Shown piece by piece: positions 23,002-60,800 of a DNA stretch of 64,000 nt. Made by a program: the position numbers and the translations under genes. Each line of letters begins with the position of its first letter. The first letter of the stretch is position 1. Origin of the DNA: an uncultured Candidatus Peribacteria bacterium. Lineage in GTDB: Bacteria > Patescibacteriota > Gracilibacteria > BD1-5 > UBA2023. The DNA is taken from the NCBI GenBank assembly GCA_964555845.1, contig CAZKUA010000006.1:8215-72214 (forward strand). The letters run 5' to 3'. Under the pieces are notes generated by a model that had not been told where the DNA came from, made no database searches, and worked only from the letters and a program-made list of their open reading frames with translations.

Positions 23002-24435
23002 TTATTTTTTAGTTAATTTTACAATTGTCTCAATATGATGAGTATGTGGAAACATATCCACAGGAATTACATCAGTAATAGCATATTCTGAATTTTTTAC
23101 AATATAATCTAGGTCACGAGCCAGAGTTGAGGGATTACAACTTACATAAATTATGGTTTTCGCATCAAAAGAAATAATACTCGAAAGTGCTGTTGGATGC
23201 ATTCCATCGCGTGGTGGATCTATTACTAATAAATCCACACTAGAGACCGGTCTCGAATTTTCGAGACCGGTCTCTGATACAAATTCTTTCAAAAAATCTT
23301 CAACTTTTGCGTTAATAAATTCTACATTTTCCACATTATTTAGTTTTGCATTATTTTGCCCGTCAATACTCGCTTCTTTTACTACTTCAACTGAATATAC
23401 TTTTTTAAAATATTTTGATAAAATTATTCAAATCGTCCCTGTTCCAGCATATAAATCTAGTGCAATTTCTCACTTTTCTTTTGATAAATTAGCCAATTCA
23501 AGTGCTTTAGAATATAATACTTCAGCTTGCATTGAGTTTGTCTGGAAAAAACTTCTGGGGTTTATTTCAAAAGTGAAATCTAGTAGTTTTTCTTTTATAG
23601 TTTTTTCTCAAAAAACAAGTTCATACTCTCACTGAACTATATCAGCTTTTCCGCTATTTTTTAAGTAATAAACAGATTTAATATTTGGAAATTTAGAAGT
23701 TAATTTTTTGATAAAATCTAGAAAATTAATCATAAAATTCTCTGGGATAGAAGCTTTATCATTTACACTGAAAATTATCATAATTTCTCAGGTATAATGA
23801 GCTTCTCTTACAACTAAATGTCTCCAAAATCAAATCCCATTAAATGGATCATAAGTAGGAATTTGGCTATTTCTTGAATAGGCGTCCACTTCCTTAAAAA
23901 TATCGTTTACTGTGTTTGATGCTAGCACGCAGTATTCACAATTAATTATTCTATCAAATTCTCCCTGTTTATGAAAACCAAATCTGAAATCATCATGAAT
24001 TTCCTCTTTTGCTGAAATATATTTTCAAAAACTAAACTCAAGTTTATTTCTGTATCAATAAATGTTTTCGGATGCTACTATTGGGTAAAATTTAGTATTT
24101 TTTGTGAAATCTTTTAAGTGAAATAAGGCTTCTTTTACTTGTTCTTCTTTAATTTTTAACTGCTGCCTATAATCTATTGGAAGCCATTTACAACCTCAAT
24201 ATACTTGAAAATGAGCTGGTAGCTCTTTTTCAAGTGGAGACTTTTTTATAATATCAGTTATTTGAGCCTCAAGATATTTACTTTTAGATTTTAGAATTCT
24301 TAAATTCACAAAACTTTCTGGAATAGCACCGCCCGTAATTATAATTTTTTTTCAATCTGGACCAATTGCTAATCATTTTCCACCAAAAATTAATTTCTCA
24401 ACTTTAATATTTTCAAGTATGGCTCACTTTTTCAT
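23002..24435 (-). CDS. TrmA/RlmD-family 23S rRNA (uracil-5)-methyltransferase with TRAM-like N-terminus, 477 aa
   Basis: Motifs DLYAGTGTIG, DPPRDG and VSCNPSTLARD. The gene extends track ORF 23002-23334 in frame. Confidence 0.85.
23243..23274. repeat. 32-bp GC-rich palindromic insert inside the methyltransferase CDS
   Basis: gagaccggtctc-gaattttc-gagaccggtctc is read in frame as ETGLENSRPVS, just before the DPPRDG motif. Confidence 0.8.
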
Positions 24436-27153: not shown

Positions 27154-30100
27154 TTATGATTTTAACCAATCTGGTAAATCGTCATCATTTTTAATATTTA
27201 TATCTTCTTTTTTTGATTTTAAATCTTTTACAGGCATTTCTTTTTTAGGTTTATTTTCTTCTTTCTTATTTTCTATTTTTATAATTTTCTCTTCTTTTTT
27301 CTCTGATTTTTTTTCTTTCTCTTTTACCCTTTCTTTCACAGGTTTTTTATGTTCTCAAGACACTTTTTTTTCTTTCTTTTTCTCATTCTGTCATTCCTGC
27401 GCAGGCAGGAATCTACTTTCTATTTCCCCTTCTTCTTTAGTCTCTTTAATTTCCTCTTCTTCTACAACTTCTTTTTTACTTACTAGACTTCATTTTAACC
27501 AATCTGGTAGCTCATCACTTGCTTCCTCAATTTTCTTTTCTTCAATTTTCTTTTCCTCAATAATAGTTGGAACTTCTACGACTTCAGGAATTTCCTCTGG
27601 AATTTCTGGAATTTCTTGTTTAGTATCACCAGATAATTCTTCATTAACTTCTTGTTCTAGTTCTTCTTTATTAATTCACTTTAACCAATCATAAGTTTCT
27701 TCTTCTTGTTTCATTTCATCTTGTTTTGTTTCTTCAATAATTTCTTCAGTTTTTTCTTCTTCAATTTTCTCTTCCTCAATAATAGCTGGAACTTCTACAA
27801 CTTCAGGAATCTCTTCTTGACTAGTCATAGTTTTTAACCAATCTGGTATTTTATTATCTTCTGGGGTTTTTTCTTCAAGAGATTCTACTCCCTCTCCCTC
27901 CGGGAGAGGGTTGGGGTGAGGGATTTCTTCGTTTGGAATTTCCTGAGCTTCTTCGTGTAGAGATGGAAGTGGTTCAGGAATTTTTTCTTCTTCAATTGGT
28001 GACATTATTGAAGATAAAATATCATCTTTCCTATCTTCAACTTTGTTTATAATTAAATTAGTTTCTCACTTTTTTTCATTCAAAAATCTCTCAATCAAAA
28101 AGTCTTGAAACGATAGATTTTCATTTTTATTTGCAACTTTAAAATACACAAATAATCAAAGTATCAAAGATATAACTCACAAAATTAAATATCCAAATAA
28201 TTTAACAAATCACATCAAAAATCACATAATTCAACCACTCTCACTTTTATTTTCTTCCACAACTTGTTGAGGTACATTTGCTTGTCCTCAATAAATAATT
28301 ACTTCTAATTGCGATTTTATAATTAATTTATCTTTATCACTAATTGTTGTATCATTTTTAATAAAATCAAGAATCTCTTTTCATAGAGTTTTGTTCATAG
28401 TTGTATTTGTCGGATGAGAAAGAATCTCATCTATATTTTTCATTATCTTATCATAAGATGCAATTGTTTTTGGAATTAGAGATTTTAGAACTTTTGCAGC
28501 TAATTTTATATCATCTTTTACCTGATCTTGTTTAACGAGTAGATTTTCTGCGAGATTATAAAATTCATCTTTTAATTTCTGATCCATAGAAGCAGTGGCA
28601 TTGATATAAGATTCAAAATCAATAATTGCCTTTGTTTTCTCTCTATCATCAAACCAGTTTTCTTGAATTAAAGAAAGAAATTGCATTAGCTTAACCCTTT
28701 CTCCTTCAGGAGCTTTTTTTATAAGATTTTTAATATCTTCTATGATAATTTTATCTTGTTCTCAAATATCTTTATTATCTTTCATTTCTACAGTTTCATC
28801 TTTATTTGAAGTACTTAATTTTAATAATATATCTTTACTTTCTTTTTTTCATGCTTCATCAATAATTGATAATCTTATTGTTTTTTCATTTTTTAGAAAT
28901 TCAAGATTTGAAGTAATAAACGGAGTTCATTTATTATATGATTCACTATTTTTATTATCACAATCATCATCTTTTGTCCCATTTAAATCTGAGTCAATTG
29001 AAATATCAGTATCCACACAATATTTTGCGATACTTCATTTTGATTCACCTAAATATATAAATAATTTATCTTGAATATTATCAATTTTTATTGTAGATTT
29101 TTCAACTGCTGGATATGTAAAATATACTAAATTATCTTTTCATTTTTTAATTCTTAATTTATTTACAACATCGCGTCTTACATCACTTTTAATTTCTTTA
29201 GATTCATTATTATCAAAAACTTTTAGATTAACAGAAGTAGGGAAGGCGTCATCTCCAAAATCATAAACAAAATAATCTAAATTTGAACTTGTTATACCAT
29301 TTCACAGGGTCCATAGCGCTCCATTATAAGTTCATTTTGAAGTATTAAATAACACTAACTTACCTCAAATTGCATAATATTCAAAATTTGGTTTGAGTAC
29401 ATTTTTAACAGTAATAATTTGATATTTTGTATTTGAAATTCATTTGTAAGTTGCTTTTACTTTGAAATTAAAAGTTCAAGGCATTGTATAAACATGACTT
29501 ATTTGAGGAGAAGAACTTGCTTGTTCATAGAATCAATTTCAGTCAAAATCCCATTTATATTCTACTTTTCCTGAAATATCTTTTCATAAAATATCTTTAG
29601 CTGACACCTTAAAATTAATTTCATCATTTGTAGAAATATTTGTCTTATCAACTTCTAGTGTAATTAGGGGAGTGTTAATATTATCTCCAGATAGTGATAT
29701 TGAATATCTTTGTTCTGAAATCTCATCTGTATTAACTTTCGCTCAATTAGAATCCTCGGCAATTAGCACAAAATAATATTTTCAAGTAATTTTTGGTAAT
29801 ACAAAAGTAGTAAAGCTTGATTTTGTAATTCTAAAATCTTGAGGCTCTGGGTCTGAATCTGTATAATAATACCAAAGGTAAGATACAATTACTCAATCTT
29901 CATCAATTGGATTATTTGCCGATACTTTTACAACCACAGGATCTGACTCTATATTGGCTGCACTAATAGTTAATCCAGGAATTTTTGGTGGAATATTTTC
30001 TACTTTTATGTAAATTGTATTTTTATGAATTTTTCATGTTTTTTGGCTTTTAACTGTGAGACTCACAGGAAAACATCCAAGCTCATCGAATTTATAAGTA

Positions 30101-32505
30101 AAGCTTTTTTGATTTGAATTTTTATTCATATATCTCCATGAATAATCAAGTCAAGCCGTATTTCCATCTGTATTTATACTATTTTCTCCAGACAATGTTA
30201 TTACTTTAGATCTATCAATCAAATAAGCCTCATTTCCAGAACAACCACCTGCAGTTGGAAAATAATCCTCATTATCACTTTTTACACTAATTAGCGCAAA
30301 TGGACTATCTCAATATGTAACATAGACATTTCTTGAAATTGTATTTGAACTATTATTATCTCATTTCACAGTTAAGCTCACATTATAAGTTCAAGATTTT
30401 TTGTAAGTATGACTTATTTTTGGGCTATTAGTTACATTTGTATTATCATCTCAAAAATTCCATTCATAAGAAATTGCTTCTTTCGAATTTGCTATAAACA
30501 TTACAGGATTTCAGATTTTTACTATTTTTGGTACAAAATTTAACTTAACTGAAAGTAGACTATCTACTTGTAAATCTTTTTTAACTGACACGGTTTTTCA
30601 TTCCTGATTTGAAACTTCAAGTACAATTTTGTGAGTTCAAAGCGAATCAAAAGTATAATAACCTCTTGCTCAACCTCTTTGAGAGTTTTCTAAATCAACT
30701 TTTTGTCAGTCAAAAAACCAGCTATATTTTAATTTTGAATTATCAAAAGTATCTGGATCATAACTTAGTGTTCCATCAAATAAATAATAATTAGGAGTTT
30801 CTGAGCTTGTTTGTCTAGTTTCAAAAGAGCCAACTGGATCTCTTGTCTCAATTGTAATTACTCTTGTGTCAGTATCTTCTCTTCAAGACGCTGATCTTGA
30901 TTTTAATCTCACACTAAATTTACCTGTTTTTCTAAATTTAAAAGATATATTTTCGAGAGCTGAACTAAATACAACTTGGTCATTTGATAAATCAACTATT
31001 TTCCATTCATAATCTAGTTTTGTAGTGTTAAACACAGAAAATGTAGATAGTTTAAAATCATCTCATACAAATCAATCTAATTTATCTACTCTAATTGAAG
31101 CTATTGGATCCCTCACTTCAAGGTCCATTTCCTTTGCAATTTCTTTACCTTCATTTGTAAGAAGCTTTAATTTTATTCTATAAATTCACTCATTTGAGAA
31201 ATATTGCTTTTCAATTCTTGGATATAAATTATTTGAATAACTCACTCAATTCCCAAAATCCCAAAAAGTCTTCGTAAAAGAAGATCATCCTGTAGCCTGA
31301 CTTGCAGTAGCATCAATAATTATTCCGGCTCTTCCAAGCGCTGGTGTAATTTTGAATCTATCGAGGTCTGATACATTAACTCAATTAATATACAAATATA
31401 TAGTTCAGATTTTAGGTAGGACATTTATATTTACACTTGATGAAAATGGTAGAGTATCAATTTTTCATTTTTGATTACGACTAGCTGATACTATTGTAAG
31501 ATTTACAATATAAGTTTTTTCTTCTTTAAATGTCTTTACAATTGAAGGACCAGTCCCCAGAACTGTTCTAGTTCCGTCTCAATTTTTTATCCACCAAACA
31601 TAATTTCAGCTTGGAATAGGAACTCCAGATGGATCTACAACTCCCTCAGATCTTAGGCTCACGGTAAGTGGAGCGTTTCCTGAGTTTGGATTAGCTGAGA
31701 TTTTTGCCATAATTCTCCCAATTTTTGCCTTAGTTAGAAAATCATTAATGCTTTTTGCGAGTTCAGTTATTCTAGTTTCTGATTCTGGATTTTTGGCTAC
31801 TACATCCACTGCAATAAGTAGATTTTTACCTAAATTATTATTTGAAATATAATCATTATTTTCCGGAAAAGTATTTATAGCTTCTGTAACTAATCTTTTT
31901 AGCTCAGTTAAATTAGTACTACTTAATTTTGAATTTACTCTATAATCTCTCTCTAATTGACTTGTCAAAAGTTCAATTCATTTCTTGTATTCATCAAAAG
32001 TGTTTTTATCATTATCAGTGTAAGCCGTAGCCTCTTGCACTATACTCGGGAAATTAAATCAGGTCGGGGTAGTTCATCAGTTTACCATATTGATAATAAA
32101 GCTTATTATAGGATAAGCCATAAACATTAGTATTATTCAAATTAGAACATGCAAAATTGTAGTTTTTGATTTTTTCACTTTTTCATCAGATCACCCAGCG
32201 ATGAGTATATTGAATCCTGCATAAATAATGTATAGCACTCCAATTACTCCCACAAAATAAATAACATATTTTACTATATCTTGCACTTTTTGAGAGAATT
32301 TTTTCTCTGTTTCAACATTGTTAAGACCATTTTTCACCGTATTAACTCAGCTCTCTATACTACAATTATCTCAGCTTTTGCAATAAATAACCTGTGTATC
32401 ACTACCTCATCCAATATCAAATATTCAGGCAGAAGCTATTCCTACATTTAAGCATATCAAAAGGCTTAATAAGAGTTTTGCAAAAATCTTTTTGTTCATT
32501 TTCAT
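27154..32505 (-). CDS. Giant surface protein of about 1783 aa: signal peptide, TrbC/VirB2-type pilin-like two-helix module, PKD/Ig-like array, TM helix, acidic cytoplasmic tail with four PDWLK motifs
   Basis: Four track ORFs (starts 27339, 28005, 28686, 31968) and the ATG at 32505 share one frame. Six PKD motif checkpoints (WDFGNG at 31248, EWNFGDD at 30453, KWDFDGNG at 29535 and others) are also in that frame. Confidence 0.75.
27390..27413. repeat. GTCATTCC...GGAATC hairpin repeat copy lying in frame inside the giant CDS
   Basis: gtcattcctgcgcaggcaggaatc is read on the minus strand as RFLPAQEGQ. Confidence 0.8.
27890..27922. repeat. GC-rich hairpin element inside the giant CDS
   Basis: ccctctccc-tcc-gggagaggg plus ttggggtgaggg encodes PHPNPLPEGEGV. 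Confidence 0.7.
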
Positions 32506-34367: not shown

Positions 34368-35372
34368 ATGTTTGAAGCGTTAATTTTGAATTGAATAGGG
34401 ACTTTATTTTGAGAGAAATCGGCTATTGAGATTAAGTCAATTTGAAATACTCTAAAAGTTCATGAAAAAATCCATATTTCTAATATGTTTCAGATGATAA
34501 TTTCACTCTTAATCCTTTCTTTCACAAGAAATTTCAAATTTATTTTTGACATTAGGCTAGTTTTTTTGTTTTTAGTTTTAATTATTTCAAGTATATTATT
34601 TAATATTTTTGTAATTAAAGCCATAGAAAACGCTGATAGATCGACAAATGGACTTCTTAGTATTTTAGCAATACCCTTGCTTTTGGTTTCAGATATTTTC
34701 CTAAAATATGATATTACAACTTATCATATTATCTGAATTATTTTTATAGTTACGACTTTGCTTACTATAAGTCTTAGATGAACCATTAACTTAAAATGAG
34801 CTCAATTTACACTACTTACTCAAGTTTTTGCATTTATAAATATTATGATTTTTAAATATATAATTACGCATTATGCTTCAACAGAATTATTAAATATAAT
34901 AACAAGTTTGGTTTTATATATTTGAAGCTTTGCTTTAATACTTAGGAAAAGCGATAGATTTGAAGTTTTAAATAAAGTATATGATAGAAAATATATAAAA
35001 TTTTGAGTGTTTTGATGACTTGGATGAGCATTTAATAGTATGTGATTTATGTTTGGACCAGCCTCAGTTATCACGGCTTTAAAGAGAATACTATCTATGT
35101 TCTGGGGAGTTGTGATGTGAAAGATATATTTCCATGAAGAAAGATTTTTCCAGAAAATGGCAAGTGTGTGAGTAATTGCAATGTGAGTTGTAATAATGAA
35201 TTTCCCAGTTATTGTTACAAACAAAGCACTTCTAACAAGTGTAAATTCAGCACTTTTAATTAAATGAGATATAAAATGATACAACCAAGCTTTAAAAGAA
35301 TCTAATATAGATCTAAACAAAAATTTCAGAGAAAATGCCGCGAGAGCTGAGCAATTATATAGTATAAATTAA
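34368..35372 (+). CDS. Polytopic membrane protein (DMT/EamA-like transporter suspected), 334 aa
   Basis: About 9-10 hydrophobic helices. The frame matches track ORF 34485-34736. Confidence 0.45.
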
Positions 35373-38815: not shown

Positions 38816-38884
38816 AATATATAAAATTAATAATAAATAAAAGTTTAAATTCAAGCTTGACCGAGAGATAAGGAAGGGCATTCT

Positions 38885-38908
38885 GTCATTCCCGTGAAGA
38901 CGGGAATC
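38885..38908. repeat. GTCATTCC...GGAATC hairpin repeat copy
   Basis: gtcattcccgtgaagacgggaatc. Confidence 0.8.
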
Positions 38909-38978
38909 TATTAAAATCAAAATTACTTTCTTCTCTCTCAAAAATTAATACGAAAGAGTGAATTTTTTCTTTCAAAAA

Positions 38979-47698: not shown

Positions 47699-48484
47699 AT
47701 GTCATCAAAATACGCAAAATATCTGGAGGAACTGGGGCTTGATAAAAATGAGGCTACGATATATTTGAGTCTTTTGCAGTTTGGAAATGCGATAGCCGGG
47801 ACTATTGTCAAAGAGACTTGATTACCGAGAGCGACAGTTTATCAGACACTTGATAGACTTGTGCAGAAGAATTTAGTTTTAAAAATTGATAAAGAAAATA
47901 TACTTACTTATTTCCCAGAAAGTCCAGAAAAATTAATAACAAATCTTAATAAACAGACAAGAGATTTAAGAAAAAAATTAGATCTTGCGGAGAAGTTAGT
48001 GCCTCATTTGGACACCTTAAAAAATCCTCACAAAAAAGATCCACAAGCGAGTTATTTTGAGTGAGAAGAGGCATATTATGAACTTCTAGAAAAATCTTTA
48101 AGAAAAAATGTGTGAGAAATACTTATGATTTCCAATTCTAAATACAAAAAACAAAACATAAAAGACGAGACAAAACTTGAGGCGATTTACAATTATGAGG
48201 ACAAAATTTTCTCAACTAAAAGACTTGAAGCTAAAATTAAACTGAGATTTATCACAAATGAAGAGAATATTTGAAAGGAATTACAGAAAAATGATATGGA
48301 TTTTATGAGGGAAACTCGCGTATTGCGAGATGATTTCGGGCAAACAGAAACTATGATAATTTTTGGAGATAATCTTATAATGATCACTGATAACTACCCA
48401 ATAATCTGACTTCACATAAAAGAAGCTCAACTCACAACTATGATGAGAAATTTATTTGAATTTGTGTGGAAGAGTTTGGGATAA
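47699..48484 (+). CDS. TrmB-family transcriptional regulator, 261 aa
   Basis: LGLDKNEATIYLSLLQFGNAIAGTIVKETGLPRATVYQTLDRLVQKNLV. Confidence 0.7.
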
Positions 48485-51424: not shown

Positions 51425-51448
51425 GTCATTCCCTCGTAGGAGGGAATC
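51425..51448. repeat. GTCATTCC...GGAATC hairpin repeat copy
   Basis: gtcattccctcgtaggagggaatc. Confidence 0.8.
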
Positions 51449-60703: not shown

Positions 60704-60740
60704 ACATAAATATTTTTTTTGAAATTAGGCCCGGATTTTT

Positions 60741-60800
60741 GTCATTTCTGCCATCTCTGTCATTCCTGCCATCTCTGTCATTCCTGCGGAGGCAGGAATC
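60741..60800. repeat. Tandem array of two truncated 18-bp units plus one complete GTCATTCC...GGAATC hairpin
   Basis: gtcatttctgccatctct, gtcattcctgccatctct, then gtcattcctgcggaggcaggaatc. Confidence 0.85.

Follow-up and report, generated by a model that had tools for sequence, protein, structure and literature searches.

Two GC-rich hairpins, here called element A and element B, lie in the low-complexity tail of a giant surface-protein gene in a 64,000-nt stretch of DNA (the window) on contig CAZKUA010000006.1 of an uncultured Candidatus Peribacteria bacterium (assembly GCA_964555845.1). They are probably lineage-specific in-frame insertions of non-autonomous structured repeats, carried as passengers in the disordered tail of the encoded protein. 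Judged by sequence, element A is a member of the dRS3/NTS family of Ssn-related motifs and element B is a member of the BoxC/PIT/TM family of triplex motifs. The genome analysed here (G000) is a draft of 1.22 Mb in 35 contigs. For comparison, 1.46 Mb of the genome of a congener (G001) were rebuilt, and each host protein was aligned with its ortholog.

Under NCBI translation table 25, the host gene forms one uninterrupted open reading frame (ORF) of 1783 amino acids with 60 in-frame TGA codons. Table 11 gave short ORFs only for the hairpin region and was dropped in favor of code 25. The reading of TGA as glycine is independently supported by ortholog alignments and by a tRNA: in ~18 ortholog pairs of G000 and G001, TGA was found opposite GGN 53 times and opposite TGG 0 times, and a tRNA with the anticodon UCA was found in G000. 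From the N-terminus, the host protein comprises a T4SS-pilin-like membrane module, a PKD array, a transmembrane helix and an acidic, lysine-rich low-complexity tail with three PDWLK anchors at residues 1554, 1667, and 1778.

The initial annotation had placed both hairpins in this tail without a break in the ORF, and the computed frame agrees. The table-25 frame is interrupted at neither element and passes through both to the conserved DDLPDWLKS; the 78 codons downstream of element A, in the same frame, finish with ...NDDDLPDWLKS*, and orthologs have the same C-terminus. The peptides that had been proposed were also recovered. Element A is read as RFLPAQEGQ from R1698 to Q1706, with G1705 encoded by TGA, and the hairpin and purine block of element B give PHPNPLPEGEGV on the gene strand (P1529-HPNPLPEGEGV-1540). 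The peptide stretches across the elements read ...EIESRFLPAQEGQNEK... and ...EEIPHPNPLPEGEGVESLEEK... in the ORF, and both elements are probably co-transcribed and co-translated with the host gene. Their GC contents of 58% (A) and 68% (B) compare with 30% in the surrounding tail and 27% in the whole window.

Element A measures 24–29 nt. Its core, GTCATTCCTGCGCAGGCAGGAATC at 27390-27413, pairs the arms 27393-27400 and 27405-27412 in a perfect 8-bp stem closed by a 4-nt loop. Element B, of 33–37 nt, consists of CCCTCTCCC (27890-27898), the loop TCC, GGGAGAGGG (27902-27910), a TT spacer and GGGGTGAGGG (27913-27922). Neither the 24-mer of A nor the 33-mer of B occurred in 100 dinucleotide shuffles of the window. 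As single-stranded DNA, element A folds with −7.7 kcal/mol (z = −4.8) and the element B hairpin with about −10 kcal/mol, the latter with weak z-scores (−1.3 and −2.1) because of its homopurine/homopyrimidine sequence. The corresponding RNA folds reach −11.9 kcal/mol for A and −17.9 kcal/mol for B. An intrinsic terminator for the host gene was considered and rejected, as the sense strand has no U-run and the sole terminator-like match, at element A, is antisense. No family for A or B was found in Rfam, where the lone weak match was FtrB over element A (E = 1.4). The positions of the elements and of related features in the window are collected in Table 1.

Table 1 Positions within the window of the host gene, the two elements and related repeats.
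Feature	Position	Strand	Description
Host gene	27154..32505	minus	Table-25 ORF; Pfam PKD, PKD_4, T4SS_pilin; orthologs in 31/31 relatives searched
Element A, NTS/SRM-type unit CTGTCATTCCTGCGCAGGCAGGAATCTAC	27388..27416	+	Hairpin 27393-27412; 5' GTC and 3' C both present
Degenerate half-site CTCATTC (cf. GTCATTC) adjoining element A	27382..27388	+	Read from sequence; weak counterpart of half-site arrays elsewhere
Element B, BoxC/PIT/TM-type, CCCTCTCCC-TCC-GGGAGAGGG-TT-GGGGTGAGGG	27887..27923	+	Matches TM_ECO table (PMC4666352)
Intergenic A copy	60716..60800	+	Copy at 60777-60800, 1 mismatch vs gene copy; preceded by left-arm half-site array
A-type copy, stem variant CCCGT/ACGGG	38884..38911	+	Upstream of an ORF; fits published SRM pattern
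A-type variant copy TCATTCCCTCGTAGGAGGGAAT	51426..51447	+	Further copy of the A family
Third palindrome, GAGACCGGTCTC x2	23243..23274		Perfect palindrome of 32 nt; strand not assigned

Both elements are absent from the G001 ortholog, which belongs to the same genus, is ~80% identical and was aligned in its tail via the PDWLK anchors and the C-terminus. Copies of A and B are also absent from eight further orthologous loci (L004-L011). The initial annotation would have been contradicted by an ortholog that encodes the same peptides in non-palindromic DNA; no such ortholog was found, and both peptides are absent from all nine loci. The economical reading of these alignments is that elements A and B are a lineage-specific gain in G000.

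Element A belongs to a numerous family. We counted 46 strict copies of TCATTCCYGC-N4-GCRGGAAT in G000, with the flanks CTG...CTAC kept, and a compensatory C-G/T-A stem variant within the family, its T-A form making up 12 of the 46 copies. Thirty-four copies are within three mismatches of the Neisseria NTS consensus, and the published degenerate SRM pattern has 42 matches in G000 vs 0–1 in shuffled genomes. Across the class the family is patchy (51 of 151 genomes), and the reversed-pattern control gave 0.

According to PMC11893778, the Neisseria NTS (CGTCATTCCCGCGMAVGCGGGAATCYRG) holds the dRS3 palindrome and is, as shown in 2025, the single-stranded DNA target of the GIY-YIG nuclease SsnA, a protein of 94 aa and one domain with the catalytic residues Y17 and E64. 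The same source describes the ssn gene as typically bracketed by its motif, GTC immediately 5' of the palindrome as needed for cleavage and C immediately 3' for binding, and NTS sites as modulators of the integration of transforming DNA. The host-gene copy keeps these critical flanks (ctGTC-ATTCC...GGAAT-Ctac, 27388-27416). Most A copies (ATTCCCGCGAAGGCGGGAAT) also contain the dRS3 core ATTCCC-N8-GGGAAT. The host-gene copy, ATTCCTGC-GCAG-GCAGGAAT, is a compensatory T-A variant in which the hairpin is intact and the literal dRS3 pattern is not, and it falls one position off the SRM pattern because of the T-A stem pair.

Five GIY-YIG ORFs (PF01541) of ~95 aa each were found in G000, at C22, C1:91612, C4:33246, C2:64378 and C5:31544, which makes five paralogs in 1.2 Mb. 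The 95-aa ORF on C22 has Tyr17 and Glu64 at the same residue numbers as Y17 and E64 of SsnA. All five genes have inverted motif variants on both sides, each gene its own variant, together with half-site arrays; the variants include GTCATTCCCGCG.., GTCATTCTTGCGAAGCGAGAATC, and GTCATTTCGAGTGCAACGAGAAATC or GTCATCCTGAGCGAA..GGATC. NCBIfam and PDB sequence searches on these ORFs returned nothing more specific than generic GIY-YIG. Five such genes accompany 46 A copies in G000, and none was found in G001 (1.46 of ~1.5 Mb), which has 13 A copies; between the two genomes, A copy number thus seems to track the presence of the nuclease. Left-arm half-sites (TCTGTCATTCCcgcccat) also form tandem arrays with a period of ~20 nt beside a full hairpin (e.g. 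G000:C1:164512, C2:114473, and C3:67435). Inside genes these arrays are translated into (EGQxG)n peptide repeats, such as RFPPSREGQKGREGQKGQEGQKGQEGQ in a pyruvyl transferase. No description of tandem half-site arrays was seen in the accessible text of the Ssn paper (PMC11893778).

The BoxC/PIT/TM repeats have been known in E. coli since the 1990s as an orphan family. In G000 we found ~21–24 copies of element B with the consensus (G)CCCTCACCCCAACCCTCTCCC-loop-GGGAGAGGGAG, and the exact 21-mer core occurs, among the matches listed (one genome per species), in Pseudomonas, rhizobia, cyanobacteria, Planctomycetes, Dehalococcoidia, Omnitrophota and others. The E. coli repeat, named BoxC, 'potential intrastrand triplex' (PIT) or TM_ECO, reads CCCTCTCCC-loop-GGGAGAGGG-TTA/CCG-GGGTGAGGG; it is described as 'always intergenic', with no linked mobility gene and with local genome instability, and intrastrand triplex formation was seen in vitro (PMC4666352). 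Positions 27890-27922 of element B follow the same three-block plan Y9 - loop - R9 - 2–3 nt - R9' (Table 1 of PMC4666352). The intergenic location is a description of E. coli and not a defining trait of the triplex motif.

A candidate partner of element B is a DUF559 endonuclease (PF04480, Vsr-like PD-(D/E)XK). The sole DUF559 gene of G000 (C3:63987-64355) lies between two inverted B copies, and the whole motif-DUF559-motif cassette (G000:C3:63949-64392) sits in frame in recG, outside the window, between helicase motifs II and III; the recG of G001 has a clean empty site at this position. The sole DUF559 gene of G001 (C6:~34780-35200) is flanked by a degenerate and an intact B-type motif, and its cassette is in frame just before SAM motif I of an RlmD-like methyltransferase, the ortholog of the window ORF 23002-24435. 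Between them, the DUF559 proteins of G000 and G001 share 63% identity, and DUF559 cassettes were also found in frame in IleS, LeuS, PriA, and RibE of other bacteria. Such a cassette appears either to remain in its host protein as an additional domain or to be translated on its own from a start codon within the gene. Directly ahead of the DUF559 start codon, the upstream motif has a purine arm with the end GGGAGAGGGAGAAT-ATG (G000:C3:63975-63990; L124:2430-2445), which could act as a Shine-Dalgarno sequence for separate DUF559 translation within the host mRNA.

The association extends beyond these two genomes. Within the class, DUF559 is present in 15 of 17 genomes with B vs 53 of 134 without B (Fisher p = 1.5e-4), and in other phyla it is present in 18 of 20 genomes holding B. 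Among 120 B-anchored loci of other phyla, three had DUF559 directly beside the motif, in Acinetobacter, in Shinella and as an in-frame priA cassette; tblastn with GIY-YIG and Y1 queries gave no match near the 120 loci. We also applied a generic flank detector (pyrimidine arm, loop, purine arm, short spacer, repeated purine arm) to DUF559 loci. A motif was found within 170 nt at 21 of 30 loci of this class, on both sides at 9, with a density 17-fold that of the rest of the locus; for 30 loci from 18 genomes of other phyla, these numbers were 26, 15, and 10.5-fold, respectively. In E. coli K-12, ycjD is a DUF559 gene, and only 168 nt separate its 3' end from TM_ECO no. 9, where ~0.004 such coincidences are expected by chance. 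The codons for the C-terminus of YcjD (..RRSPSP) form part of a degenerate triplex-motif hairpin, with which the stop codon also overlaps (E. coli K-12 1351385-1351417). Compared by eye, the motif sequence varies among DUF559 homologs (CCCTCTCCC, CCCCTCCC, TCCCCCC, CTTCTCC) and the architecture is constant, a combination that has the look of terminal repeats recognised by their own protein. An open-access literature search found no paper that ties DUF559 to BoxC/PIT repeats, which is not proof of novelty. We consider the chances evenly balanced that BoxC/PIT/TM motifs are solo termini of a small mobile element whose gene is DUF559, and that in Gracilibacteria and relatives the element and these termini lie largely in coding sequence.

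The giant gene is one of many that carry such copies. G000 is ~87% coding, and copies therefore often land in genes. With a spanning-ORF test, in which a genic copy lies well inside a long ORF, 8 of 46 A copies (17%) and 14 of 21 B copies (67%) were genic, compared with the 87% coding genome; hence A is strongly depleted from genes and B much less (A vs B, Fisher p = 1.5e-4). The two families occur in frame in ~20 other G000 genes, e.g. those for Lgt, Fmt, DusB, MiaB, ArgS, Mfd, and RecG. Absent in G001 are A plus half-sites in Lgt (+22 aa), A in a HemW-like protein and an AcrB-like pump, B in DusB (a clean net +36 nt) and B-DUF559-B in RecG (~160 aa). Common to both genomes are A in Fmt and B in MiaB, Mfd, ArgS, RNase HI and three other proteins. 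In the pyruvyl transferase the elements differ at the same site, where G000 has an A array and G001 has a B copy.

Code 25 bears on which frames are available to these copies. Under this code, B is free of stops in all 6 frames and A in 5 of 6, the latter number depending on TGA being a sense codon. The RF(L/P)PxxEGQ frame with TGA is used by 6 of the 8 genic A copies, the giant gene included, and would hold a stop under the standard code; code 25 opens this most-used A frame.

Some copies lie in more complex surroundings. In uvrC (G000:C8:45703-45791), two inverted B copies bracket an N run beyond which the reading frame is doubtful, and this gene was dropped as an in-frame example; repeats such as B can break or confuse short-read assemblies. 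The groES-groEL spacer (G000:C11:25200-26050) is a mosaic made up of two small ORFs and four repeat copies, three of A and one of B, and resembles a Neisseria intergenic mosaic element. B directly abuts A at C11:25978 and C22:8835, and the argS B copy (G001:C1:~48050-48140) has a loop insert in G001 that carries the A half-site GGAATGACAG, a nested repeat.

Taken as insertions, the hairpins can be placed in a tentative mechanism. By analogy with Neisseria, the partner of A would be the small single-domain GIY-YIG (Ssn) nucleases, which would bind to the hairpin as single-stranded DNA and cleave it; the putative partner of B would be the DUF559 endonuclease, whose genes are bracketed by inverted motif copies. 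The nucleases may be connected in some way with the spread of the repeats. Copies would survive if they lengthen the gene by a multiple of three nucleotides overall, bring no stop into the frame and enter a protein that tolerates 4–22 extra residues. The low-complexity tail after the last transmembrane helix would be a tolerant landing site, and code 25 would remove the stop that A would otherwise bring. A and B most likely have no selected protein function in the giant gene.

Several observations weigh against this insertion reading or its parts. The tail is so rich in indels relative to G001 that the host gene offers no sharply bounded empty site. From the G000/G001 pair alone, loss in G001 would be possible, and only the eight other element-free orthologs argue otherwise. 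The host-gene A copy is a CCTGC/GCAGG sub-variant, 4 of 28 bases off the NTS consensus and one stem position off the SRM pattern. Genic copies shared by G000 and G001 are near-identical in DNA while their flanks show synonymous changes, which hints at constraint or gene conversion and not at plain neutrality. As to the nucleases, repeat movement driven by Ssn is raised only as a hypothesis in its source paper (PMC11893778), the link between DUF559 and the motif is purely associative, and the only functional study found, on a Caulobacter DUF559 protein, proposes a role in mismatch repair.

The strongest competing explanation, though an unlikely one, is that the hairpins are selected cis-elements, which would either diversify the tail as hot spots of recombination or instability or modulate uptake and repair of this locus as Ssn cut sites. 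TM motifs do accompany locally raised rearrangement in E. coli (PMC4666352), the NTS modulates integration of transforming DNA in Neisseria (PMC11893778), indels relative to G001 are more frequent in the tail than in any other part of the protein, shared genic copies are near-invariant between two species, and the pyruvyl-transferase site holds an A array in one genome and a B copy in the other. However, the same elements occur in unrelated housekeeping enzymes that have no need for variation, orthologs of the giant gene manage without both, and a low-complexity tail is indel-prone in any case. That the peptides are instead old functional parts of the protein, with the palindromic DNA incidental, is already contradicted and very improbable: short linear motifs would be plausible in a repetitive tail with short conserved PDWLK motifs, but none of the nine orthologous loci has either peptide, the DNA matches dispersed families with many intergenic copies, and the GC content of the elements is about twice that of their surroundings.

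An assembly or binning artefact, in which repeats were collapsed or mis-joined in the metagenome-assembled genome, is scarcely credible. The draft does consist of 35 contigs and the B pair in uvrC brackets an N run, but N runs are absent from the element region, the flanks on both sides of each element keep their frame and order in the alignment with the ortholog, and ~20 further genic copies have colinear orthologs. That a RAYT (Y1 transposase) moves element A as an ordinary REP is just as improbable. On the reverse strand, most A copies have GTAG directly before the hairpin, and G000 carries one Y1_Tnp gene; this sole Y1 gene, however, is flanked and interrupted by the different palindrome GAGACCGGTCTC, and neither A nor B flanks it in the way that a REP flanks its RAYT gene. 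A-family motifs bracket GIY-YIG genes, and the sequence of element A is essentially the Neisseria NTS (PMC11893778). RAYT was accordingly rejected as the partner of A. Insertion of two structured repeats remains our preferred explanation of the hairpins.

The GAGACCGGTCTC palindrome forms a third family. Within the window it lies inside the rlmD/TrmA-like methyltransferase ORF 23002-24435 (minus strand), where it is read in frame as ETGLENSRPVS; the G001 ortholog lacks it. There are 21 copies in G000 and 1 in G001; those of G000 cluster around the Y1_Tnp (RAYT-like) gene at G000:C10:166-681, with two in frame within that gene. No Y1_Tnp gene was found in the 1.46 Mb recovered from G001.

Small structured repeats are not restricted to intergenic DNA: in a gene-dense, AT-rich genome with TGA as glycine they are written into proteins, housekeeping enzymes included, where they persist across species. 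Selfish DNA can gain a wider niche from an altered genetic code, as the most-used A frame would hold a stop codon in the standard code. For annotation, RFLPxQEGQ, VIPAKAGIY, SPLPLGEGLGVR, and PHPNPLPEGEG in proteins of uncultivated bacteria should be taken as repeat-derived inserts and not as motifs. The DUF559 link yields a hypothesis on how BoxC/PIT repeats arose, testable in E. coli K-12 through ycjD, and one for the many stand-alone DUF559 proteins. If it is true, DUF559 and the triplex motif would be a third nuclease-plus-hairpin system beside REP/RAYT and NTS/Ssn, and the motif-DUF559-motif cassette in essential genes would occupy an intein-like niche without a splicing domain. By analogy with Ssn, DUF559 proteins may also be a further source of structure-specific DNA nucleases.

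Compared with known systems, the A family is closest to NTS/Ssn. The motif GTCATTCC(C/T)GCG..GC(G/A)GGAATC is nearly the same as the Neisseria sequence, with 5' GTC and 3' C kept, and both systems have ~95-aa nuclease genes between inverted motifs and a patchy spread among relatives. Here, by contrast, TGA encodes glycine, five nuclease/motif pairs share 1.2 Mb, the gene copy has a T-A stem pair, left-arm half-site arrays are turned into (EGQxG)n peptides, and 17% of copies are in frame in genes; the terms 'intragenic' and 'within genes' were not found in a text search of PMC11893778. Element B shares with TM_ECO the three blocks and their spacing (CCCTCTCCC - loop - GGGAGAGGG - 2–3 nt - GGGTGAGGG), the inverted pairs and the occurrence in many phyla, but the E. 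coli copies are intergenic, whereas here two thirds are in frame in genes and a DUF559 gene is bracketed. Like inteins and homing-endonuclease insertions, the DUF559 cassette is found in frame near catalytic motifs, in RecG, PriA, IleS, LeuS, and an RlmD-like enzyme; unlike them, it has no Hint or splicing domain and no intron features. REP/REPIN-RAYT systems likewise pair a single-copy nuclease gene with a scattered short structured repeat that flanks it, and G000 has its own such pair in Y1 and GAGACCGGTCTC, but A and B are tied to GIY-YIG and PD-(D/E)XK folds, and REPs are extragenic by definition.

Finally, the initial annotation had likened the hairpins to Rickettsia palindromic elements (RPEs), which are ~150 bp long, form families in Rickettsia and encode conserved peptides of ~30–50 aa (PMC10969869). 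The likeness in behavior stands: A and B are in-frame palindromic repeats that add 9–12 residues and are absent in orthologs. The suggested family does not, as they belong to two other families and measure 24–40 nt, and neither is a long imperfect palindrome of 100–150 bp. A and B are therefore RPE-like in behavior and set apart from the RPE family by size and by identity to two other families, which makes sequence similarity to an RPE family unlikely. In both cases dispersed palindromes of a small AT-rich genome lie in frame in unrelated genes, including those for housekeeping enzymes, add a peptide and leave the host gene intact. The repeats described here differ in adding 4–22 aa from 24–40 nt, in belonging to two pan-bacterial families and in having a candidate partner nuclease each.

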